NCBI GenBank assembly: GCA_038042445.1
Contig: JBBTED010000036.1
Coordinates: 21,743 to 34,520, forward strand
Length of the DNA stretch: 12,778 nt
Reading direction: 5' to 3'
Source: Candidatus Firestoneibacteriota bacterium
Lineage (GTDB): Bacteria > Oederibacteriota > D2-FULL-39-29 > JBBTED01
Translations under genes and position numbers: made by a program
Notes under the pieces: generated by a model
What the model was told of the DNA's origin: nothing
What the model saw: the letters and a program-made list of their open reading frames with translations, nothing else
Databases searched by the model: none
In this document: positions 599 through 12,778 of the stretch, in pieces
Numbering within the stretch: position 1 is the stretch's first letter
Layout: every line of letters starts with the position of its first letter

Positions 599-1648
599 AT
601 GATTAAATTTGTTGAAGGAGAGCTTTGGGACGAGTTGCTTGAAGTTACACAGCAGAAAAACATACCTCTTTTTGCGATGTTAGAACTTACTTATGCTTGT
701 AATTTGAATTGTGTGCATTGTTACATACCGGATAAAAGCCATAATAATGATTTAACTACGGATGAAATAAAAAATATTATAGATGATTTGACAGATGCAG
801 GATGTATTTTTTTAACGCTAACAGGTGGAGAAGTATTTAAAAGGGATGATATTTGGGAGATACTGGAGTATGTGTATTTTAAAAAGTTTGCGTATCAGAT
901 TTTTACAAATGGTACATTTATTACAAATGAAGTAGTGGAAAAACTTAAAAATATTCATCCATGGGAAATAGGCATAAGCTTGTATAGTATGAACGAGGAT
1001 ATTCATAATAAAATAACAGGTGTGTCTGGATCTTTTAAAAAAACTGTCCAAAGCATACTAAATTTAAGAGAAAATAATATACCTGTTAGAATAAAAACAG
1101 TTTTAATGGAGCAAAATTTTGACGGGTATGAAGAAATACTAAAATTTGCTGATAAATTTGGAATAAAAGTGCATTTTGATTTTATCATTTCTCCTAAAAA
1201 CGATGGTGATAAATCACCTTTGAAATATAGGTTAAGTGAAGAAAAATATAAAATATTAATTTGTGATACAAGGATTTTTCCTGCGGAAAATGAGGCTAAA
1301 GAATCATCTAAAAAGGATAATATTTTGTGTCATGCAGGAAAAAATAGCTGTTCTATTTCTCCGTCTGGTGATGTGTATTCTTGTATTCAGATACCGGTAA
1401 AAGCTGGTAATATCAGAGAATCTTCATTTGTGGATATATGGAAAAATGGAAAAGTGTTAAATAAGATAAGAAAAATAACTGAAAATGAAGTTATATTATG
1501 TAATAATTGTTCTGTTGTTTCATATTGCAGTCGTTGTCCTGGACAGGCGTATATAGAAGATGGAAATATAAATGGACCGGCAAATATATTTTGTAGAATT
1601 GCAAAAATAAGGAAAGAGGAGGAAAAAATAAATGAAAGCAAAAATTAA
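599..1648 (+). CDS. Radical SAM/SPASM-domain peptide maturase (PqqE/AlbA-like), 349 aa
   Basis: CxxxCxxC motif (C34-NLN-C38-VH-C41), LTGGE, FTNGT and ISLYS..H...G..GSF core motifs. C-terminal SPASM cysteines: CHAG...GDVYSC...GNI...IW...CNNCSVVSYCSRCPG...C. Confidence 0.93.
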   Translation: MIKFVEGELWDELLEVTQQKNIPLFAMLELTYACNLNCVHCYIPDKSHNNDLTTDEIKNIIDDLTDAGCIFLTLTGGEVFKRDDIWEILEYVYFKKFAYQIFTNGTFITNEVVEKLKNIHPWEIGISLYSMNEDIHNKITGVSGSFKKTVQSILNLRENNIPVRIKTVLMEQNFDGYEEILKFADKFGIKVHFDFIISPKNDGDKSPLKYRLSEEKYKILICDTRIFPAENEAKESSKKDNILCHAGKNSCSISPSGDVYSCIQIPVKAGNIRESSFVDIWKNGKVLNKIRKITENEVILCNNCSVVSYCSRCPGQAYIEDGNINGPANIFCRIAKIRKEEEKINESKN

Positions 1649-1784
1649 AAAAGAAAAAAAAGTATATAAAAAGCCAAGCATAGTTTTTGAAAAAATATTT
1701 GAAACTTCTGCGCTTGCCTGTGGTAAATGTTCAAGTGGTCCTATTTCTCAGAAGGCTTGCAAGGGAAATCCAAAAACAAGTTGA
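1632..1784 (+). CDS. Putative RiPP precursor peptide, 50 aa: MKAKIKKEKKVYKKPSIVFEKIFETSALACGKCSSGPISQKACKGNPKTS (not in the ORF track)
   Basis: ATG 1632 to TGA 1782-1784, with AGGAGG at 1617-1622 (9 nt before the ATG) and a 17-nt overlap with the radical SAM gene. The Lys-rich leader carries YxxPxI, an RRE-binding-type motif, and the C-terminal part has three Cys (C30, C33, C43). Confidence 0.85.
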   Translation: MKAKIKKEKKVYKKPSIVFEKIFETSALACGKCSSGPISQKACKGNPKTS

Positions 1785-2763: not shown

Positions 2764-2792
2764 TTGACTTTTGGGGGAAATTGTATTATATT
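2764..2792 (+). promoter_or_regulatory. Candidate sigma-70 promoter TTGACT-N17-TATATT just upstream of the giant ORF
   Basis: -35 at 2764-2769 (5/6 match), 17-nt spacer, -10 at 2787-2792 (5/6 match). Confidence 0.55.
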
Positions 2793-2806
2793 ATATAGTA
2801 GAGGGT

Positions 2807-5800
2807 ATGAAAGTGAGAAATAAACTGTATTTCAAAGGTATATGTATTTCTTTTTTTCTTGCCTGGACAACTGTTCTGTTTGCAGGTACGAGAATTAAAA
2901 CAGTTGAGTATAGTTTTGGCAGTTATTACAGTGCTACTGATATTGCTACTGCTACTTCTTGGTCTCCTTCCAGTTTAACTTTATATATTCCAGAAAATAC
3001 AAGAACAATAAAATCCGCATATCTTGAATTTGAATGTAATACAATCGCAAATACAGCTGTTTCAAATATAGACATTATGTTTGATGCTGGTGCTTCTGCT
3101 TCTACTGTTCGTGATAGTATTACAGGAACTTATACTGCAATTACAGGTGAATGTATAAAAATTATTGCAAAAGCAGATGTAACGAGTTATTTAGCATCTG
3201 ATTTTGTTGGAACAACAAGCAAATTATATTCTGCATCAGTTACAGTTACAGGTCCTGGTACAAATGGTCATTCTTTAAAACTTTATATTACTTATGAATA
3301 TGGAGATACTTCAACAAGACAGATTAAAACTGTGAGATTTCCTCTTTTTTCTGATGTTAATATTGCAAGCAAATTAGCGGCAGTTGGAGCCGGAACTTAT
3401 AGTTTTACATACAATGCGGAAATCGCTGATTCAAATGTTGTTGTCCGTCAGCAGTGGTTTGAAATTCGTGGATACAGGCAATCCAGTGGTGTAGCTACAA
3501 ACAGTAGTATTAGTGTGAAGGTTCAAGGAGCAGTGACAGGTTCTAACACAATGACACTTCGCGGTGTATTAATTGACAGTTATGATTTTAGATTTCTTGA
3601 TCACCAGGGGAATACCGGTATTGAAGGATTTGCTATAAATACATCTCAGATTCTTGATATTACCAGAGTTCAGGGTAATACAAATTATTTGGGAGGAGAA
3701 TGTGTTGTTACTTATGAATATGATGATAGCTCTTTATGGAAAACAAAAACAGTCAGGTATTTTCTTGGACAGTTAATTAATGGTGGCGGTGGAAATATGA
3801 GCCAGAATATTTATTTGGGTGAATCTGGGATTGAAATTTTAAGAATGTATTCCCAGATTTATGGTTCTTTTGATTCAACAACAGCAACTAACTTACTTGT
3901 TGATTCATCTGTAAATGGATATTCTGTAACCCAAAGGGGATATTCATTACAAATAAGCGCTGCTTCTATATCAGGGTATACATTTTTCCACGATTTAGGA
4001 GAACAAAAAGCAAATTTTTTAAATGGCTCTCAGATTATTGTTGGAGTAAATAATGTTACAAATGCCGGTGGTCAGGGCACAGAACTTATAATCACTTACA
4101 AATATTCAGGTGAGTCTGCGGGCTATACAAATGATTACCGGGTTATTACAGGCCAGTCTGCAAATGGAACAGGCACAACATCCGCACAAACTTTTTCAGT
4201 ATATTTCCCAAGTTGGTATTCTCCACAGGATTTAGGTGTCCGAACTTTAAGAAGTTCGTGGTTTAGAGGAGATACTATAAGAAATGGCGCTACCGGCGAC
4301 CATACAACTACCCAGAATTTTAATGGTTTAAGTTCGCAGACAGTTACACATAGGACAGCAGTAGAATCATTTGCCGATTATGTCTTATATGGAAATGCAG
4401 GACAAATTACAACAAGCAGTGCTAATGCAACTGCTAATTATTCAATAAGTGTGAATACTGGAAGTTTTTCTGGTGTATCCGGAATTGTGTATACTTATGC
4501 AAAGCCACCAAATATTCCTACAAATTTAGCACAGTATAAATCTGATGGAACGACTTTAATTTCAACAGGGGTTTGGACAAATGAATCTACTGTTGTTTTG
4601 AAAATGACAATGACGAGTCCTCTGTCTTCTGATACTTTAACTCCGCAAATAGAAATTTTGCCTATTGGAACAGGTTTCACAGGAACACAAAATTATTCTG
4701 GTTCATTTGTGGCGTATTCAGGTTCTGGTGTTACAGGAACAGTGACAGTGACAGGACTTACTTCAGGAACGCAATATCACTGGCAGGCAAGAGTGTCTGG
4801 AACTAATGGTGTTGGTCCTTGGCAATCTTATCCAACACCTACTCCAAATGGTGAAGCAGAAGCAGATTTAGGAATTGATACGAGTAATCCCGGGATAACA
4901 GATACGCAAACAGGAGATGATACATGGAAGAATGTTTCTGGGACAGCATACAATGTTGATTTTTCTGATACAGGGAATTCGTTGTTATCTTATGCCCAGT
5001 ATACAGTATATTCAAATACAAATTTAACAGGGACAACTTTAAAAGATTGGACGAATATAGCGAGCAGTATAAATGCCTCTGATTATACGAATGATTGGGC
5101 TGTAGATTGGACGAGCTTACAACAAGGCACAAATTATGTGAGTGTTCGAGTGTATGATAATGCAGGGAATTGGGCAACACTTGTAGATCCGTTTTATATT
5201 AAAAAGGATGCAACAAATCCCGGTATAACAGATAATCAAACAGGAGATGATACATGGAAGAATGTTTCTGGGACAGCATACAACATAGATTTTAGTGACA
5301 CAGGGAATTCGTTGTTATCTTATGTACAATACACAGTATATTCAGGGGCAGGATTAACAGGTTCAACACTTAAAGACTGGACGAATATAGCGAGCAGTAT
5401 AAATGCGAATGATTACACAAATGATTGGCAGGTAGATTGGACAGCACTTCAACAAGGAACGAATTATGTATCAGTAAGAGTTTATGACAATGCAGGAAAT
5501 TCAGCAACACTTGTAGATCCATTTTATGTGAAGAAAGATACAACGAATCCTGTTATAACAGATCTTCAGACAGGAGATGATGTGTGGAAGAATGTTTCAG
5601 GAACGAGCTATAACATAGATTTTAGTGACACAGGAAATTCGTTATTATCTTATGCACAATACACAGTATATTCAAATACAAATTTAACAGGGACAACGTT
5701 AAAAGATTGGACGAATATAGCGAGTAGTATAAATGCGAGTGATTATACGACTGATTGGCAGGTAGATTGGGCGAGTTTACAACAAGGCACGAATTATGTA

Positions 5801-8800
5801 TCAGTGCGAGTTTATGATAATGCAGGAAATTCAGCAACACTTCTTGATCCATTTTATGTGAAAAAGGATGTAACAAATCCTGGGATAACGGATAATCAAA
5901 CAGGAGATGACACGTGGAAGAATACAAGTGGAACGAGCTACAACATAGATTTTACTGATACAGGGAATTCGTTATTGTCTTATGCTCAATATGTAGTATA
6001 TTCAAACACTAATTTAACAGGAAGTACATTAAAGGATTGGACGAACATAGCAAGCAGTATAAATGCGAATGATTATACAAACAACTGGCAGGTAGATTGG
6101 ACAGCACTTCAACAAGGAACGAATTATGTATCAGTAAGAGTTTATGACAATGCAGGAAATTCAGCAATACTTGTAGATCCATTTTATATTAAGAGGGATA
6201 CGAATAATCCGGGAATAGCAGATGTTCAATCTGGTGATGATACCTTCAAAACTGCTGGAGGAACGAATTATAATATCAATTTTTCAGATACAGGAGGTTC
6301 ATTACTTTCTTATGCCCAATATACTGTTTGGACAAATACAGAGCAAACAGGTGTGTTGCGCGTTGACTGGACGAATATAGCAAGCAGTATAAATTCAAAT
6401 GATTACACACAGGATTGGACCGTAGATTTTGCTTCGCTTGCACAAGGAACGAATTATGTATCAGTGAAAGTGTATGACAATGTTGGTAACTCGGCAACTT
6501 TAAATGATGTGTTCTATGTGAAAAGAGATACAAGTAAACCCGGTATAGTAGATACACAAACAGGTGATGACACATGGAAGAATTCATCAGGCACAAGTTA
6601 TAATGTTGATTTTAATGATAACCAGTCTTTATTATCTTATGTTCAGTATACTGTATTTTCAAACACAGCATTGACAGGAAGCACTTTAAAGGATTGGACA
6701 AATATAGCAAGTAGTATAAATGCGAGTGAATATACAGATAACTGGCAGGTGGATTGGGCGAGTGGACAGCAGGGAACAAATTATGTATCAGTTCGTGCGT
6801 ATGATAATATGAATAATTCAGACACACTTGCAGATGTGTTTTATGTCAAAAAAGATACAAACAATCCGACAATCACAGATAACCAGACAGGAGATGATAC
6901 CTGGAAAAATTCATCAGGCACAACTTACAATATAGATTTTTCAGATACAGGCGGTTCATTGCTTTCTTATGTGCAATATACTGTGTATTCAAATACAGGT
7001 TTGACGGGTTCTACACTTAAAGACTGGACAAATATTGCAAGCTCAATAAATGCGTCGGATTGGACAGACAATTGGCAGGTGGATTGGACGAGTTTGCAAC
7101 AGGGAACAAACTGGGTATCTGTGCGTGTGTATGATAATTCCGGAAATTGGGCAACACTTGTAGATCCATTTTATATCAAAAAAGATATAAATGTTCCGTA
7201 TGTAACTGATAATCAAACAGGAGACGATACTTATAGAAATTCATCAGGCACGAGTTACAATGTGGATTTTTATGATACAACTGGTGCAGAAAATTCACTG
7301 CTTTCTTATGTTCAGTATACAGTATATTCAAGTAGTAATATGACAGGAAGTACTTTGAAAGCATGGACAAATATAGCAAGCTCAATAAATGCAAGTGAGT
7401 GGACTTCAAATTGGCAAATAGATTTTTCAAGTTTGCAGGAAGGAACAAGTTATGTTTCAGTTAGAGTGTTTGATATTGTTGGAAATGGTGCAACACTTGT
7501 TGACCCATTTTATGTGAAAAAAGATGCTACACTTCCACAGGTTACAGATAATCAATTAGGTGATGATACCTGGAAAAAAACATCAGGGACTACTTATGAT
7601 ATAAATTTTTCTGATGCCGGAACTTCACTACTTGCGTATGCTCAATACACAATTTATTCAAGTCCGGGACAAACTGGTTCTACCTTAAAGGACTGGACGA
7701 ACATTGCCACAAGTATAAATGCATCAGATTATACAGATAATTGGCAGGTTGATTGGACAAGTTTGCAGGAAGGAACAAATTATGTGTCGGTGAGAGTTTA
7801 TGATAATGCAGGAAATTTTGCAAATTTGAATGATGTGTTTTATGTTAAAAAAGATACAAACAATCCAACAATCACAGATAACCAGACAGGAGATGATACC
7901 TGGAAAAATTTATCAGCCACAACTTATAATATAGATTTTTCTGATACATTATCTTTAATAAACAATGTGCAATATACAGTTTATTCAAATACAAATTTAA
8001 CAGGCTCAACCCTGATTGACTGGACAAATATAGCAAGCAGTATAAATGCGTCAGATTATACACAGGATTGGGCTGTGGATTTTGCATTGCTTCAGCAGGG
8101 AACTAATTATGTGTCAGCTCGTGTCTATGATAATTCTGGAAACTGGGCAACACTTCTTGATGTATTTTATGTGAAAAAAGATACAAGTGGTCCGACAATT
8201 ACGGATAATCAAACAGGTGATGATACCTTCAAAACTACAGGTGGCACTGTTTATAATATTGATTTCACAGACAACTTATCTTTGCTTTCTTATACACAAT
8301 ACACAATTTATACATCAAGTGGTTTAACTGGAACACAATTAAAAACATGGACAACTTTTGCAAGTAGTATAAATGCGAGTGATTACACGAATAATTGGCA
8401 GGTGGATTTTGGTGTGTGTCAGCAGGGAACAAATTATATTTCAGTTAAAGGTTATGATATTTCTGGAAATGTATCACAGACGAATGATATATTTTATGTT
8501 AAAAAAGATACAAACAATCCAACAATCACAGATAACCAGACAGGTGATGATACCTGGAAAAATTCATCAGGCACAGCTTACAATGTGGATTTTTCTGATG
8601 GAACATCTTTAATAGATACTATTCAGTATGCAGTTTATTCTAATACAAATTGGACAGGCACAACACTTATTGACTGGACAAATATAGCAACAGGTGTGAA
8701 TGCATCAAGTTATACGGACAATTGGCAGGTTAATTTTGCATCATTACAAGAAGGTACAAATTATGTTTCTGTTAAATTATCAGATTATGCAGGTTTGAGT

Positions 8801-11800
8801 AATACACTTGCAGATACGTTTTATGTTAAAAAAGATACAAATAATCCGGGTATAGCAGATAATCAGACAGGTGATGATACTGTTCGTTCTGTTCCTGGCA
8901 CAACATATAATGTGGATTTTTCCGATACAGGTAATTCGTTGTTGTCATATGCTCAATATACAGTATACTCGGGAACAAATTTTACAGGGACAACACTTAA
9001 AAACTGGACAAATATAGCGAGTAGTATAAATGCGAGTGATTATACTATAGATTGGAGTGTGGATTTCGGTTCATTAAATGCAGGTGCAACAAATTATGTA
9101 TCAGTGCGCACTTTTGACAATGCGGGAAATTCGGCAACACTTATAGACCCGTTTTATATAATAAAAGCAGCAGATCTGCCTTTAGTCACAGACAATCAAA
9201 CAGGTGATGATACATGGCGAACATCAAATACCGGAACCTACAATGTAGATTTTTCTTCTACAAGTGGATTTAATTTGGATTATTTTCAGACAAGAATAAT
9301 GACTTCAGCAAGCCAAGGTGGAAGCACTTTGCAGGATTGGATAACTGTTGCTTCAGGTATTGGAGCGATTGATTATACCAATAATTGGTCTATATTAGCT
9401 TCAACATGGTCAAGTTGTAATGAAGGCACAAATTATGTTTCTACTCGTGTGTATGATACTGATACACCAGTAAATTCTACAACTGTGAATGATGTATTTT
9501 ATGTGAAAAAAGATACGAGTAATCCGGGGATCACAGACAATCAAACAGGAGATGATGTATGGAGAACCGAAACACCTGGAACAACTACTTATAATGTAGA
9601 TTTTTCTGATACTACTTCTTTGCTTTCTTACGCTCAGTATACAGTTTATTCAAATACTAATTTCACAGGTAGCACTTTAAAAGATTGGACAAATATAGCA
9701 ACAAGTATAAATGCGTCAAATTATACAATTGATTGGCAGATAGATTTCGCTTCTTTGCAGCAAGGAACAAATTATGTGAGTGTTCGTGTTTATGATAATG
9801 CCGGTTTAAGTGCAACACTTGCAGATGTATTTTATGCGAAGAAAGATACTGATAATCCGGGGATCACAGATAATCAAACAGGAGACGATACATGGCGATC
9901 TACAAGTGGGACAACATACAATATAGATTTTTCTGATCCTGGAGTATCATTGCTTTCATACGCCCAATACACAGTTTATTCAAATACAAATTTAACAGGC
10001 ACTACCTTAAAGGATTGGACAAATATAGCAACAAGTATAAATGCATCAGATTATACAGATAACTGGCAGGTGGATTGGACTTCCTTACAGCAGGGAACGA
10101 ATTGGGTATCTGTTCGTGTGTATGACAATGCAGGAAATTGGGCAACACTGTTAGACCCATTTTATATAAAAAAGGATACACAAGGTCCGGTAGTTACAGA
10201 CAATCAGACAGGTGATGATATATGGAAAGATACTGCAGGAACAACATACAATATAGATTTTTCTGATTCATTATCTTTACTTAATAATGTTCAATATGCA
10301 GTTTATAGTGATACAGGCCTGACTGGTTCAACATTAAAAGACTGGACAAATATTGCTTCTGGTATAGGCGCAAGTGATTGGACAACAAATTGGCAGGTTG
10401 ATTGGGCTTCTCTTCAAGAAGGAACGAATTGGGTTTCTGTGAAGGCTTTTGACTACCAAAATAATTCTTCAACACTTGTGGATTCATTTTATATAAAAAA
10501 GGACACACAAGGTCCAACAATTACGGATAATCAAATAGGCGATGATACCTGGAGAAAATCACCTAATACAGTTTATAATATAGATTTCTCTGATACAAAT
10601 TCCCTGATTTCATACATTCAGTGGACAGCGTATACAAATACTGAGTTTACTGGTCTTACTCTAAAGGACTGGACAAATATAGCAACAAATGTTAATGCAT
10701 CATCTTATACAATAGATTGGCAGGTGGATTTTGCTGCTTTGCAGGAAGGCACAAGTTATATTTCTGTTCGCGCGTATGATAATCTTAATCACTGCACTAC
10801 ACTTATTGACCCATTTTATGTTAAAAAAGATGTTGGTTCACCACAGATTTCTGATGATCAGTTAGGTAGTGATATATGGATAAATTCATCAGGCACAACA
10901 TACAATATAAATTTCAGTGATATCGGCAATTCATTTCTTTCTTATGCCCAGTATGCGGTTTATTCTGATACAGGACAGACTGGTTCTACATTAAAAGACT
11001 GGACGAATATTGCAAGTTCTATAAATGCATCTTCGTATACAAATGATTGGCAAGTTGACTTTGTTTCATTACAGGAAGGCACAAATTATGTGTCAGTGAA
11101 GATTTTTGATAATGCAGGAAATTCAGCAACACTTATAGATGTATTTTATGTTAAAAAAGATGTAACTATTCCAAGTGTAACAGATAATCAGACAGGTGAT
11201 GATACCTGGAAAAAAATTGCAGGAACAAGTTATGATATAGATTTTTATGATAATCAGGGGCCAGCCGATAGGTCTAAATTATCTTATGTCCAGTATGCTG
11301 TTTATTCAGATACAGGGTTTACTGGTTCTACATTAAAAGATTGGACAAATATAGCAAGCTCTATAAATGATAATTCTTATACTACAAACTGGCAGATAGA
11401 TTTTGCAAGTGGGCAGGAAGGCACAAATTATGTTTCAGCACGTGTATATGACAATGCTGGAAATTCTGTAACACTTGCAGATTCATTTTATGTTAAAAAA
11501 GATACGCAAGGACCAACAATAACAGATAGTGAAACAGGTGATGATACGTGGAAGAATGTTTCAGGAACAGCATACAATATAGATTGGACAGATACAAAAT
11601 CTTTGCTTGATTATGTTCAGTATGCAATTTACAGTAGTATAAATCAGACAGGTTCAACCTTAAAGGACTGGACAAATATTGCTTCTGGTATAGGTGCGAG
11701 TGATTACACTACAAACTGGCAGATAGATTTTGCTGCATCAACAGAAGGATTTAATTATGTTTCTGTTCGCGGGTATGATAATTTGGGAAATGTTTCTACA

Positions 11801-12778
11801 CTTACAGATGCTTTTTATCTAAAAAAAGATACAGGATTGCCTTCTGGCATATGTTCACCGCAGTCTTATTCAAATCAATTAACTTTTAATGTGCCGTTTT
11901 CTGCATCAGATGCTGTTTCAGATATTTCTCAGGTGAAATTATATTATACAACAAGCTCAGGTTCTCCTTATGCGTGGACGAATTACGGTTCATTTATCAC
12001 AAGCCCTGTTTCATGGACTGCAGGTGGGCCTGGGAGTTATGGATTCAGAATAGTAGCTTTTGACAATGCAGGAAATACTGATGAAACTGATCCACCAGCT
12101 CCTGCAACATCTGTGGAGGGCACTACAATAATTGATACAACCTCTCCTTCTATAACAGACAATCAATCAGGAGATGATAATTGGAAAAATTCCAGTGGGA
12201 TGAGTTACAATATAGATTTTTCAGATACAGGTGGAAGTTTACTTTCTTATGCCCAGTATACAATTTATTCAGATACAGGTTTGACTGGTTCAACCTTAAA
12301 GGACTGGACAAATATAGCAACCAGTATAAATTCTGCAACTTATCAGGATAATTGGCAAGTAGACTTTGCAAGCTTGCAAACGGGCACGAATTATGTATCA
12401 GTCAGGGGGTTTGATAATTCCGGAAATTCAGCAACACTTGTGGATTCATTTTATGTGAAGAAAGATACAAGTGTTTCGGGAATCACAGATAACCAGACAG
12501 GAGATGATACATGGCGTTCTACAAGTGGCACGAGCTACAACATAGATTTTTCAGATACAGGTGGAAGTTTGCTATCTTATGTTCAATATGCAATTTATTC
12601 AAATACTAATTTAACAGGTTCAACATTAAAAGACTGGACAAATATTGCAATTAGCATAAATGCGAATGATTATACTGATAACTGGCAGGTTGATTGGGCG
12701 AGTTTGCAAACAGGAACGAATTATGTATCAGTTCGGGTTTATGACAATGCTGGAAATTCAGCAACACTTATAGACCCG
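2807..12778 (+). CDS. Giant secreted/surface repetitive Ig-like protein (putative adhesin), at least 3324 aa, 3' end outside the window; start may be GTG 2813
   Basis: Frame 2 stays in register from ATG 2807 to the last base. The ORF track lists no stop-terminated ORF in this frame, consistent with no internal stop. The N-terminus MKVRNKLYFKGICISFFLAWTTVLFA|GTRIK looks like a Sec signal peptide. The sequence is Thr/Ser/Asn/Asp-rich with tandem domains carrying DNAGN and D-T-x-x-P linkers typical of bacterial Ig-like repeats. Confidence 0.92.
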   Translation, partial: MKVRNKLYFKGICISFFLAWTTVLFAGTRIKTVEYSFGSYYSATDIATATSWSPSSLTLYIPENTRTIKSAYLEFECNTIANTAVSNIDIMFDAGASASTVRDSITGTYTAITGECIKIIAKADVTSYLASDFVGTTSKLYSASVTVTGPGTNGHSLKLYITYEYGDTSTRQIKTVRFPLFSDVNIASKLAAVGAGTYSFTYNAEIADSNVVVRQQWFEIRGYRQSSGVATNSSISVKVQGAVTGSNTMTLRGVLIDSYDFRFLDHQGNTGIEGFAINTSQILDITRVQGNTNYLGGECVVTYEYDDSSLWKTKTVRYFLGQLINGGGGNMSQNIYLGESGIEILRMYSQIYGSFDSTTATNLLVDSSVNGYSVTQRGYSLQISAASISGYTFFHDLGEQKANFLNGSQIIVGVNNVTNAGGQGTELIITYKYSGESAGYTNDYRVITGQSANGTGTTSAQTFSVYFPSWYSPQDLGVRTLRSSWFRGDTIRNGATGDHTTTQNFNGLSSQTVTHRTAVESFADYVLYGNAGQITTSSANATANYSISVNTGSFSGVSGIVYTYAKPPNIPTNLAQYKSDGTTLISTGVWTNESTVVLKMTMTSPLSSDTLTPQIEILPIGTGFTGTQNYSGSFVAYSGSGVTGTVTVTGLTSGTQYHWQARVSGTNGVGPWQSYPTPTPNGEAEADLGIDTSNPGITDTQTGDDTWKNVSGTAYNVDFSDTGNSLLSYAQYTVYSNTNLTGTTLKDWTNIASSINASDYTNDWAVDWTSLQQGTNYVSVRVYDNAGNWATLVDPFYIKKDATNPGITDNQTGDDTWKNVSGTAYNIDFSDTGNSLLSYVQYTVYSGAGLTGSTLKDWTNIASSINANDYTNDWQVDWTALQQGTNYVSVRVYDNAGNSATLVDPFYVKKDTTNPVITDLQTGDDVWKNVSGTSYNIDFSDTGNSLLSYAQYTVYSNTNLTGTTLKDWTNIASSINASDYTTDWQVDWASLQQGTNYVSVRVYDNAGNSATLLDPFYVKKDVTNPGITDNQTGDDTWKNTSGTSYNIDFTDTGNSLLSYAQYVVYSNTNLTGSTLKDWTNIASSINANDYTNNWQVDWTALQQGTNYVSVRVYDNAGNSAILVDPFYIKRDTNNPGIADVQSGDDTFKTAGGTNYNINFSDTGGSLLSYAQYTVWTNTEQTGVLRVDWTNIASSINSNDYTQDWTVDFASLAQGTNYVSVKVYDNVGNSATLNDVFYVKRDTSKPGIVDTQTGDDTWKNSSGTSYNVDFNDNQSLLSYVQYTVFSNTALTGSTLKDWTNIASSINASEYTDNWQVDWASGQQGTNYVSVRAYDNMNNSDTLADVFYVKKDTNNPTITDNQTGDDTWKNSSGTTYNIDFSDTGGSLLSYVQYTVYSNTGLTGSTLKDWTNIASSINASDWTDNWQVDWTSLQQGTNWVSVRVYDNSGNWATLVDPFYIKKDINVPYVTDNQTGDDTYRNSSGTSYNVDFYDTTGAENSLLSYVQYTVYSSSNMTGSTLKAWTNIASSINASEWTSNWQIDFSSLQEGTSYVSVRVFDIVGNGATLVDPFYVKKDATLPQVTDNQLGDDTWKKTSGTTYDINFSDAGTSLLAYAQYTIYSSPGQTGSTLKDWTNIATSINASDYTDNWQVDWTSLQEGTNYVSVRVYDNAGNFANLNDVFYVKKDTNNPTITDNQTGDDTWKNLSATTYNIDFSDTLSLINNVQYTVYSNTNLTGSTLIDWTNIASSINASDYTQDWAVDFALLQQGTNYVSARVYDNSGNWATLLDVFYVKKDTSGPTITDNQTGDDTFKTTGGTVYNIDFTDNLSLLSYTQYTIYTSSGLTGTQLKTWTTFASSINASDYTNNWQVDFGVCQQGTNYISVKGYDISGNVSQTNDIFYVKKDTNNPTITDNQTGDDTWKNSSGTAYNVDFSDGTSLIDTIQYAVYSNTNWTGTTLIDWTNIATGVNASSYTDNWQVNFASLQEGTNYVSVKLSDYAGLSNTLADTFYVKKDTNNPGIADNQTGDDTVRSVPGTTYNVDFSDTGNSLLSYAQYTVYSGTNFTGTTLKNWTNIASSINASDYTIDWSVDFGSLNAGATNYVSVRTFDNAGNSATLIDPFYIIKAADLPLVTDNQTGDDTWRTSNTGTYNVDFSSTSGFNLDYFQTRIMTSASQGGSTLQDWITVASGIGAIDYTNNWSILASTWSSCNEGTNYVSTRVYDTDTPVNSTTVNDVFYVKKDTSNPGITDNQTGDDVWRTETPGTTTYNVDFSDTTSLLSYAQYTVYSNTNFTGSTLKDWTNIATSINASNYTIDWQIDFASLQQGTNYVSVRVYDNAGLSATLADVFYAKKDTDNPGITDNQTGDDTWRSTSGTTYNIDFSDPGVSLLSYAQYTVYSNTNLTGTTLKDWTNIATSINASDYTDNWQVDWTSLQQGTNWVSVRVYDNAGNWATLLDPFYIKKDTQGPVVTDNQTGDDIWKDTAGTTYNIDFSDSLSLLNNVQYAVYSDTGLTGSTLKDWTNIASGIGASDWTTNWQVDWASLQEGTNWVSVKAFDYQNNSSTLVDSFYIKKDTQGPTITDNQIGDDTWRKSPNTVYNIDFSDTNSLISYIQWTAYTNTEFTGLTLKDWTNIATNVNASSYTIDWQVDFAALQEGTSYISVRAYDNLNHCTTLIDPFYVKKDVGSPQISDDQLGSDIWINSSGTTYNINFSDIGNSFLSYAQYAVYSDTGQTGSTLKDWTNIASSINASSYTNDWQVDFVSLQEGTNYVSVKIFDNAGNSATLIDVFYVKKDVTIPSVTDNQTGDDTWKKIAGTSYDIDFYDNQGPADRSKLSYVQYAVYSDTGFTGSTLKDWTNIASSINDNSYTTNWQIDFASGQEGTNYVSARVYDNAGNSVTLADSFYVKKDTQGPTITDSETGDDTWKNVSGTAYNIDWTDTKSLLDYVQYAIYSSINQTGSTLKDWTNIASGIGASDYTTNWQIDFAASTEGFNYVSVRGYDNLGNVSTLTDAFYLKKDTGLPSGICSPQSYSNQLTFNVPFSASDAVSDISQVKLYYTTSSGSPYAWTNYGSFITSPVSWTAGGPGSYGFRIVAFDNAGNTDETDPPAPATSVEGTTIIDTTSPSITDNQSGDDNWKNSSGMSYNIDFSDTGGSLLSYAQYTIYSDTGLTGSTLKDWTNIATSINSATYQDNWQVDFASLQTGTNYVSVRGFDNSGNSATLVDSFYVKKDTSVSGITDNQTGDDTWRSTSGTSYNIDFSDTGGSLLSYVQYAIYSNTNLTGSTLKDWTNIAISINANDYTDNWQVDWASLQTGTNYVSVRVYDNAGNSATLIDP
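4877..12778 (+). repeat. Intragenic array of 23 ~110-aa (327-345 bp) Ig-like repeats, the last cut by the window end, interrupted once by a different domain
   Basis: The DNQTGDDTW-type motif starts at 4901, 5231, 5561, 5891, 6221, 6551, 6878, 7208, 7547, 7877, 8204, 8531, 8858, 9191, 9536, 9869, 10199, 10526, 10853, 11183, 11525, 12158 and 12488. Approximate consensus: PGITDNQTGDDTWKNxSGTxYNIDFSDTGxSLLSYAQYTVYSNTNLTGSTLKDWTNIASSINASDYTxNWQVDWxSLQQGTNYVSVRVYDNAGNSATLVDPFYVKKDT. Confidence 0.95.

Follow-up and report, generated by a model that had tools for sequence, protein, structure and literature searches.

The stretch of DNA considered here (the window) comprises 12,778 nucleotides (nt) of contig JBBTED010000036.1 (positions 21,743 to 34,520, forward strand) of a Candidatus Firestoneibacteriota bacterium. 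It contains a four-gene cassette which may well direct synthesis of a peptide that is made on ribosomes and altered after translation (RiPP). The genes lie on one strand (plus) in the order PqqD-radical SAM-peptide-peptidase. The first encodes a discrete PqqD-family RiPP recognition element (RRE) of 91 amino acids (aa), resembling lasso B1 proteins and LppB (181-456; Pfam PF05402, 4.4e-12; the top NCBIfam match, lasso_PqqD_Bac, is below cut-off). The second encodes a radical S-adenosylmethionine (SAM)/SPASM maturase of 349 aa (599-1648; Pfam Radical_SAM 1.6e-25, SPASM 6.1e-10). The third, at 1632-1784, is a precursor peptide gene of 50 codons plus stop, recognised from the list of open reading frames (ORFs), its homologues and its conservation. 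The fourth encodes a soluble signal-peptidase-like leader peptidase of the Sec11/SipW type (S26B; 157 aa, 1963-2436) with predicted catalytic residues S27, H65 and D91. The window proteins were scanned with Pfam and NCBIfam; for the giant ORF downstream of the cassette, the first 610 aa were scanned.

The precursor ORF runs from an ATG at 1632 to a stop codon at 1782-1784. It shares 17 nt with the end of the radical SAM ORF (599-1648) and is preceded, 9 nt before the ATG, by a Shine-Dalgarno sequence, AGGAGG (1617-1622). An earlier note on this DNA, made from the sequence alone, had drawn attention to the ORF on these grounds; its reading of the ribosome binding site, the overlap and the 50-aa product agrees with ours. 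The window is AT-rich, and 54 of its ORFs reach at least 40 aa, so a 50-aa ORF is weak evidence in itself and might have arisen by chance across the 3' end of the radical SAM gene; conservation decides. The precursor matches no Pfam or NCBIfam model. A word-indexed protein search returned three proteins, the window peptide itself and homologues at 76% and 70% identity. Public protein collections contain the exact sequence, labelled as predicted or hypothetical, and the ESM Atlas gave clusters named 'hypothetical protein' only, at 0.88-0.90. In the sister family of the same class, six of six genomes carry the precursor (seven copies, 53-60% identity); no homologue is found in the remaining families of the phylum, and the total is 7 of 99 genomes including the window's own. 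Fifteen residues are counted as invariant in ten sequences; those listed are M1, K9, Y12, P15, I22, F23, E24, T25, L28, A29, C30, G31, K32, C33, G36, C43 and S50.

Between precursor genes, synonymous sites are saturated (pS 0.40-0.91) and nonsynonymous differences are few (pN 0.04-0.30). This saturation makes dN/dS incomputable for most pairs; the computable ratios are 0.08-0.45. By these measures the coding sequence is under purifying selection. A ten-sequence profile run against 1.84 billion representative proteins, clustered at 50% identity, found 344 clusters at E<=1e-3 (the best 150 of which were listed) and 24 at E<=1e-10. Protein-level conservation over several phyla, together with the saturated synonymous sites, refutes the chance ORF, to which we give practically no weight; the ORF at 1632-1784 is almost certainly a real precursor peptide gene. 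Two lone peptide copies in a single sister-family genome (L025 7995-8144 and L026 7998-8147) have no cassette enzymes within 8 kb; they differ mainly at synonymous sites (dN/dS 0.08). There is no RNA sequencing run among the listed holders of the sequence, every holder being a DNA run. A search of genome contigs with the radical SAM enzyme as query gave 137 pattern matches, none confirmed.

The peptide is accompanied by a recurring set of enzymes. A degenerate DNA pattern (Y-x-K-P-x7-F-E-T-x2-L-x-C-G-K) run on a species-representative genome collection matched at least 124 genomic stretches, from which 80 loci (prefixed L) were fetched. By record title these are 63 Acidobacteriota-type, ten Elusimicrobiota, two Armatimonadota and two Proteobacteria metagenome-assembled genomes; the rest are one Planctomycetaceae, one Candidatus Firestonebacteria and one unclassified. 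L040, L091 and L114 overlap other loci and were dropped, leaving 77 non-overlapping loci. Their ORFs were labelled with our own jackhmmer profiles, which were seeded from the window and one sister-family locus and are not curated models. A PqqD protein, a kinase of the HprK/phosphoenolpyruvate carboxykinase (PEPCK) fold, the peptidase and the radical SAM/SPASM enzyme all lie within 5 kb of the peptide in 47 of the 77 loci. Twenty loci are lone (orphan) peptide copies and ten have part of the set, several of these lying at contig ends; two or three peptides occur in each of seven loci. The radical SAM/SPASM gene is present in the window and in 50 loci (47 with the full set). The kinase is present in 49: 47 with four enzymes, and two with PqqD, kinase and peptidase only.

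Across phyla the gene set is conserved and gene order is variable. The typical order is peptide-peptidase-kinase-PqqD-rSAM (rSAM, radical SAM) in loci with Acidobacteriota titles, kinase-PqqD-peptide-peptidase-rSAM in those with Elusimicrobiota titles, and kinase-PqqD-rSAM-peptidase-peptide in the sister family. In sister-family locus L023 (8746-12212), three unrelated genes, including a response-regulator-like ORF, lie between the PqqD-rSAM and peptidase-peptide pairs.

The leader can be read against that of the Linear Polyphosphorylated Peptides (LPP), a Bacillota system with components LppA/B/K/S/N/D (Popov et al., Nat Commun 2026, PMC13381572). The LPP precursor consensus is YxxPxVLxHQxIxFETxxS (PMC13381572). 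In the window, the proposed leader comprises residues 1-25 (1632-1706), with a Lys-rich N-terminus; its boundary is set by analogy to LppA/LppS. It contains the motifs Y12-K-K-P15-S-I17 (1665-1682) and F23-E24-T25 (1698-1706), with a hydrophobic residue at position +5 of YxxP. These motifs are well conserved. Among the 229 sequences which fit the motif frame, of 239 distinct, Tyr is kept in 226, Pro in 226, Phe in 214, Glu in 223 and Thr in 194. FET and YxxP are separated by two residues fewer than in the LPP consensus, and the third residue after FET is Leu in 227 of the 229, versus Ser in LPP.

The best matches of the RRE family profile in the Protein Data Bank (PDB) are lasso B1 proteins and LppB: TbiB1 (2.3e-17), LppB (9x8z_B, 2.6e-11), PbaB1 (2e-9) and TfuB1 (7e-9), true PqqD scoring lower at 2e-6. 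The earlier note's idea of a lasso-type YxxP motif that binds an RRE is supported by the near-complete conservation of its Tyr and Pro and by the closest solved relatives of the RRE. In the LppB crystal structure, leader Y-16 is hydrogen-bonded to D70 and P-13 is packed against V35 and F74; both leader residues are needed for RRE binding, which Y-16A and P-13A weaken (PMC13381572). The only invariant column in 36 RREs is D74 of the window PqqD protein, which aligns with LppB D70; window F78 aligns with LppB F74. The LppB chain numbering is offset by 18 and was checked against eight residues named in PMC13381572. This correspondence of D74 and F78 with the residues by which LppB grips the leader Tyr and Pro is the strongest evidence in the present analysis for docking through Y12 and P15; by this analogy YxxP is likely to dock on the RRE as in lasso and LPP systems.

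Two observations concern RREs outside the window. One protein (P0111, 151 aa) is a natural open frame in which a PqqD/RRE domain is followed by a C-terminal family peptide. In its predicted fold, the RRE part has a predicted local distance difference test score (pLDDT) >90; residues 100-151 are at 43-72 and have no secondary structure, the peptide part having no alignment rows. Another contig of the window's own genome (L029 1453-2847) carries a second PqqD-family gene (82 aa) and, immediately after it, a 371-aa ATP-grasp-like ORF. This pair may be a separate RRE-dependent peptide system.

The peptidase is of S24/S26 type; all of 29 sequences keep G25, S27, M28, P30, H65, R66 and D91. It scores 52.6 bits against NCBIfam TIGR02228 (archaeal-type signal peptidase I), for which the cut-off is 51.85. 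Human SEC11C (5.7e-10) and SEC11A (9.5e-10) head the PDB matches of its profile, with bacterial signal peptidase I and LexA scoring lower. The enzyme lacks a hydrophobic segment at the N-terminus. The corresponding LPP enzyme, LppS, has a triad (S29/H68/D93) established by mutation, and cleavage by it needs LppB; it cuts after the Thr of FET, and mutating F-3, E-2 or T-1 lowers cleavage (PMC13381572).

As the homologous LppS cuts after FET (PMC13381572), we place the end of the leader after T25, with some preference over A29, which the earlier note had taken as the boundary. A cut after A27-L-A29 was initially favoured and was demoted on account of LppS; it remains the alternative. Counted from a cut after A29, 211 of 229 sequences have Ala at position -3, and at -1 the residue is Ala, Ser, Thr, Val or Gly, matching the classical -3/-1 rule. 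In sister-family locus L022 (2705-3199), no stop codon separates the peptidase ORF from the peptide ORF, and the two form one open frame of 164 aa with the peptide's ATG inside it. A long ORF in L090 which overlaps a second peptide copy is not taken as such a fusion; the peptide's stop lies inside it, in another frame.

The proposed core comprises residues 26-50 (1707-1781), delimited from the invariant columns and core statistics. It begins with S-A-L-A and contains C30-G-K-C33 (1719-1730), Q40-x-x-C43 (C43 at 1758-1760) and the C-terminal S50 (1779-1781). The arrangement C30-x2-C33-x9-C43 is as the earlier note described it. Asp, Glu, Trp, Tyr, Phe and His are all missing from residues 30-50, and E24 is the last acidic residue of the peptide; the absence of an acidic residue for a macrolactam, also remarked upon in the earlier note, is thus correct. 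Family-wide statistics refer to 214 distinct cores, 25 of 239 sequences having been set aside (no anchor, or core outside 12-30 residues). The C-terminal residue is Ser in 211 cores and Thr in three; among 153 stored proteins it is Ser in 148. Exactly seven residues follow the last Cys in 190 of the 214, Gln lies three residues before it in 124, and Lys or Arg occupies the antepenultimate position in 167. All of 71 diverse members keep C30, K32 and S50, and G31 and C43 are at or above 90%.

Two traits attributed to the core do not extend to the whole family. It was described as a three-Cys core, which is true of the window; C33 is found in 68 of the 214 cores, a subgroup which includes the window, and the other 146 have two Cys. 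It was also described as aromatic-free. This holds for the window copy and not as a family trait, as 53 of 152 cores are aromatic-free; acidic and aromatic residues are not conserved family-wide. The lack of aromatics in the window core argues against a cyclophane.

In the radical SAM enzyme, C34-x3-C38-x2-C41 and the SPASM Cys at 244, 262, 301, 304, 310, 313 and 332 are each present in 44 of 44 sequences, a pattern which implies two auxiliary clusters in addition to a single radical SAM cluster. In the PDB the family profile scores best with SkfB (1.6e-33), which forms thioethers, and PqqE (1.7e-32), followed by CteB (5e-19) and SuiB (3e-18). A SPASM enzyme paired with a short, Cys-bearing core typically forms thioethers. 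The conservation of the core and the class of the enzyme together suggest that it could make a thioether from core Cys, a prediction which we regard as evenly balanced. Of the conserved core motifs, Q-x-x-C presumably resembles the NxxC motif of NxxcB, and C-G-K the W-G-K motif of WgkB, whose NCBIfam model is one of the better matches of the radical SAM enzyme (141.7 bits, cut-off 650).

The kinase-like protein of the relatives matches ScmC (1e-10) and HprK-related kinases A and B in NCBIfam, each below cut-off. Its AlphaFold2 (AF2) model (pLDDT 87, predicted template modelling score 0.85) matches ATP-dependent PEPCK (1e-5) and HprK/P (1e-4) in Foldseek. In paeninodin-type lasso peptides, an HprK-like kinase acts on the conserved C-terminal Ser of the precursor (PMC9266682). 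The sole invariant Ser of the present family is C-terminal, and for this reason that residue is expected, by analogy, to be the phospho-acceptor in kinase-bearing relatives. The invariant C-terminal Ser, the kinase of the relatives and the nature of the peptidase had all been overlooked in the earlier note.

These elements can be assembled into a pathway. Judging from homology, Y12-x-x-P15-x-I17 would dock on the PqqD-type RRE (181-456), lying in its hydrophobic cleft as a beta-strand. The RRE would then present the peptide to the radical SAM/SPASM enzyme (599-1648), which would act on the invariant Cys. The products would most likely be intramolecular thioethers (sactionine or ranthionine-type) from C30, C43 and, in the window subgroup, C33, and C30-G-K32 and Q40-x-x-C43 are candidates for the acceptor motifs. 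The Ser-His-Asp peptidase (1963-2436) would remove the leader after F23-E24-T25, if it behaves as LppS does, or alternatively after A27-L-A29. In most relatives, the HprK/PEPCK-fold kinase would phosphorylate the C-terminal Ser, as in paeninodin-type lasso peptides. Lacking a kinase, the window copy would give an unphosphorylated product. Taken as a whole (docking, radical SAM cross-linking, leader removal, and a kinase step in most relatives), we favour this RiPP pathway by a modest margin.

Several points weigh against the pathway, and the first group concerns chemistry. No curated NCBIfam radical SAM model reaches its cut-off for the window enzyme, and the best scores are for NirJ2, AhbD, MftC and WgkB, which are non-thioether enzymes, as is PqqE among the PDB matches. 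For the whole precursor family, the modification chemistry is something we infer. The spacing of the leader also differs from LPP, with FET two residues nearer YxxP and Leu in place of the S3 phospho-acceptor (PMC13381572). A real precursor might be docked and trimmed as proposed while its radical SAM enzyme carries out non-thioether chemistry: epimerisation, C-C or C-O cross-linking, Cys oxidation, or C-terminal chemistry as in MftC, the Cys forming a disulfide or a metal site. The NCBIfam ranking, with no sactipeptide maturase at the top, fits such chemistry, as does a PDB score for PqqE nearly equal to that for SkfB, and the fixed C-x6-Ser-COOH tail and invariant Lys could mark the site. 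Set against this, the only invariant side chains of the core are Cys, Lys and Ser, aromatics are unconserved in the cores, and the typical product of a SPASM enzyme with a short Cys core is a thioether. We consider non-thioether chemistry a possibility of some substance, though a doubtful one.

The window also has no exporter gene. This, the discrete PqqD protein and the nearly full-length alignment of the radical SAM enzyme with the MftC and PqqE models would suit a peptide from which a redox cofactor of the PQQ/mycofactocin kind is made inside the cell, and not a secreted or surface-active peptide. Yet the scores are far under the cut-offs (MftC 143.3 bits against 265, PqqE 89.1 against 381), and the core lacks the residues used by those pathways. 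The 20 orphan copies and seven multi-peptide loci among the 77 are typical of natural-product RiPPs, and an ABC transporter adjoins the cassette of one relative. A cofactor precursor is accordingly improbable.

A third group of points is peculiar to the window copy. The kinase was not found in the window or in its genome, which is 90% complete, with either a single protein or a nine-sequence profile as query. In LPP, the kinase polyphosphorylates core Ser3, and unphosphorylated precursor is cleaved poorly (PMC13381572); by analogy, the window copy might be impaired. Repetitive extragenic palindromic (REP) elements and a transposase-like gene lie inside and beside the cassette. Four copies of a REP-like palindrome (core CGCAGGCTAAAGCCTGCG) are found at 128-166 (repeat families D2/D3, inverted repeats I3/I5), 1836-1864, 1888-1926 and 2695-2733. 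The 3' end of a gene resembling REP-associated tyrosine transposases occupies 1-129 on the plus strand (NCBIfam NF047646, 8.6e-6, below cut-off), and its ORF extends upstream in L030. It sits upstream of PqqD, in the slot taken by the kinase gene in sister-family cassettes.

The window could thus hold a decaying or crippled cassette, whose peptide is not matured or not made. The missing kinase, the four REP-like copies and transposase-like gene around the cassette, and the poor processing of the peptide in a kinase-less LPP mutant (PMC13381572) are in keeping with decay, and PqqD, peptidase and radical SAM without kinase, as in the window, are seen in only two of the 77 loci. But all four ORFs are intact, and the peptide, RRE, radical SAM enzyme and peptidase keep every family-invariant residue; the ribosome binding site is strong, a 76%-identical homologue keeps the same residues, and the genome is just 90% complete. 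We consider decay unlikely, and retain the pathway set out above, with an unphosphorylated product, for the window copy.

Other features of the window lie between and beyond these genes. In the peptide-peptidase spacer, two of the REP-like elements form an inverted pair (within 1836-1926; arms 1836-1864 and 1894-1922, 29 nt, 100% complementary, I1), at which a terminator-like hairpin is called on the minus strand. This perfect 29-nt inverted repeat (1836-1922) could be an attenuator or mRNA stabiliser. Four overlapping copies of a 32-nt repeat (ACCAATACAAA-like) are found at 1915-1978, spaced 10-11 nt from start to start and running into the start of the peptidase ORF. Directly 3' of the peptidase gene (2413-2546) are two G/C-rich hairpins of the form TCCCCCTTTAATAAAGGGGG, 100 nt apart. 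A PF14907 nucleoside triphosphate (NTP) transferase gene, as found in some relatives, occurs only once in the window's own genome (L028 1390-2550, 197 bits); it is on another contig, beside a response-regulator gene and away from the cassette.

The remainder of the window (2771-12778, plus strand) is occupied by a giant ORF for a repeat protein of more than 3336 aa, open at its 3' end. The repeats are of about 110 aa each, and the first 610 aa have no Pfam match. Orthologues with about 60% identity lie directly downstream of the peptide in sister-family loci L023 (1-7623) and L024 (5-5530). A homologue in Elusimicrobiales (L064 10238-16060) has 38% identity over about 2000 aa, and 259 aa at the start of L044 are 40% identical. 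Five loci with Elusimicrobiota titles (L037, L053, L056, L064 and L108) have an open-ended ORF of 1596-2035 aa downstream of the cassette on the same strand; in four of these it does not match the giant ORF of the window. No such ORF stands out in the cassette loci with Acidobacteriota titles. The giant repeat protein is a neighbour of the cassette, and its membership of the system is unproven. A bolder proposal includes it: a new RiPP class in which an LPP/lasso-type module (leader, RRE and signal-peptidase-like peptidase) is joined to a radical SAM/SPASM enzyme making small thioether rings of a hitherto undescribed kind, a three-residue Cys-Gly-Lys and/or a Gln-x-x-Cys ring, with the C-terminal Ser (poly)phosphorylated in most lineages and the product working with the giant repeat surface-type protein whose gene follows in the window, in two sister-family loci and in at least five loci with Elusimicrobiota titles. 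We put this forward tentatively.

No description of the precursor family with its radical SAM enzyme was found in the literature searched, motif strings included. SynChlorMet, GeoRSP and 'HprK-related kinase' have no occurrences in the literature searched, and PMC10288494 has no occurrence of kinase, Acidobacteri, signal peptidase or phosphoryl. The large family of gene sets with a radical SAM enzyme appears unstudied; as far as our searches reach, it is an undescribed and widespread relative of the LPP and lasso leader-RRE systems. If the pathway is correct, phyla of soil and groundwater such as Acidobacteriota, Elusimicrobiota and Armatimonadota have an uncharacterised RiPP pathway that can readily be spotted by its precursor family. 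It would combine three modules not previously seen together: a lasso/LPP-type leader-RRE pair, a signal-peptidase-like peptidase (a kind of RiPP leader peptidase first described in 2026) and a radical SAM/SPASM enzyme, usually with a kinase too. The LPP-type module would reach beyond Bacillota, and the system would be a test case for one RRE serving three different enzymes. The kinase-less window copy would be a natural control for the role of phosphorylation. Because the only invariants of the short core are Cys, Gly, Lys and the terminal Ser, its chemistry should be solvable by one co-expression experiment.

Sactipeptide and ranthipeptide systems (SkfB, AlbA and CteB; we take NxxcB to belong here also) share with this family a radical SAM enzyme with a C-terminal SPASM domain, an RRE and a short Cys-bearing core. 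In those systems the RRE is fused to the enzyme, whereas here it is discrete. Curated sactipeptide maturase models all score far below cut-off and the thioether is a prediction here; the present set also includes a kinase and a peptidase resembling signal peptidase I (SpI). SynChlorMet (ScmC/ScmD/ScmE/ScmF) and GeoRSP systems likewise bring together genes for a P-loop HprK-like protein, PqqD and radical SAM/SPASM enzymes. ScmC is the best NCBIfam match of the kinase, and ScmD, ScmE and GeoRSP models are matched too; all are below cut-off (ScmC at most 41.5 bits against 125, ScmD at most 24.7 against 100, ScmE 108-110 against 400). Here there is one radical SAM enzyme and not two; judged by NCBIfam names, those systems have neither the SpI-like peptidase nor the present precursor family.

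Paeninodin-type lasso systems (PadeK/ThcoK, PsmK/PsmN) resemble the family in their B1-type RRE and [Y/W]xxP leader, and in having an HprK-like kinase, a conserved C-terminal Ser and an accompanying nucleotidyltransferase-like protein (PMC9266682). They differ in the remaining machinery: here a radical SAM/SPASM enzyme and an SpI-like peptidase stand in place of the macrolactam synthetase, B2 cysteine protease and Asp/Glu acceptor. Neither an Asn-synthetase-like macrolactam synthetase (C) nor a transglutaminase-like B2 protease is named by the Pfam and NCBIfam scans of the window, with the giant ORF covered for its first 610 aa, in agreement with the earlier note, which saw no lasso cyclase. 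The lasso isopeptide ring needs Asp or Glu at core position 7-9, and the core of the window peptide has neither.

The closest described system is LPP. Differences from it, as far as the main text of PMC13381572 goes, begin with the fixed radical SAM/SPASM member found here; that text contains no radical SAM or SPASM. The core here is short (18-25 aa), bears Cys and ends in an invariant Ser, in contrast to the variable linear LPP core, and the kinase is missing from the window copy. LPP is called Bacillota-restricted in PMC13381572, whose main text does not mention Acidobacteria or Elusimicrobia; the present family is found in Acidobacteriota, Elusimicrobiota and others. The likenesses run through the whole processing module: both have a discrete lasso-like RRE with a Tyr-anchoring Asp and a pocket-dividing Phe, a leader with YxxPx[hydrophobic] and FET, and a soluble archaeal-type SpI-like Ser-His-Asp leader peptidase. 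Most relatives also share the HprK-like kinase with LPP, and some the PF14907 NTP transferase (PMC13381572). Supplementary Data 1 of PMC13381572 lists Acidobacteriota SpI proteins beside an RRE; the word Acidobacteriota occurs there 19 times, and one such row is placed in sequence similarity network (SSN) cluster 3, 'RRE others', with no precursor assigned. These Acidobacteriota SpI and RRE pairs may belong to the family described here.

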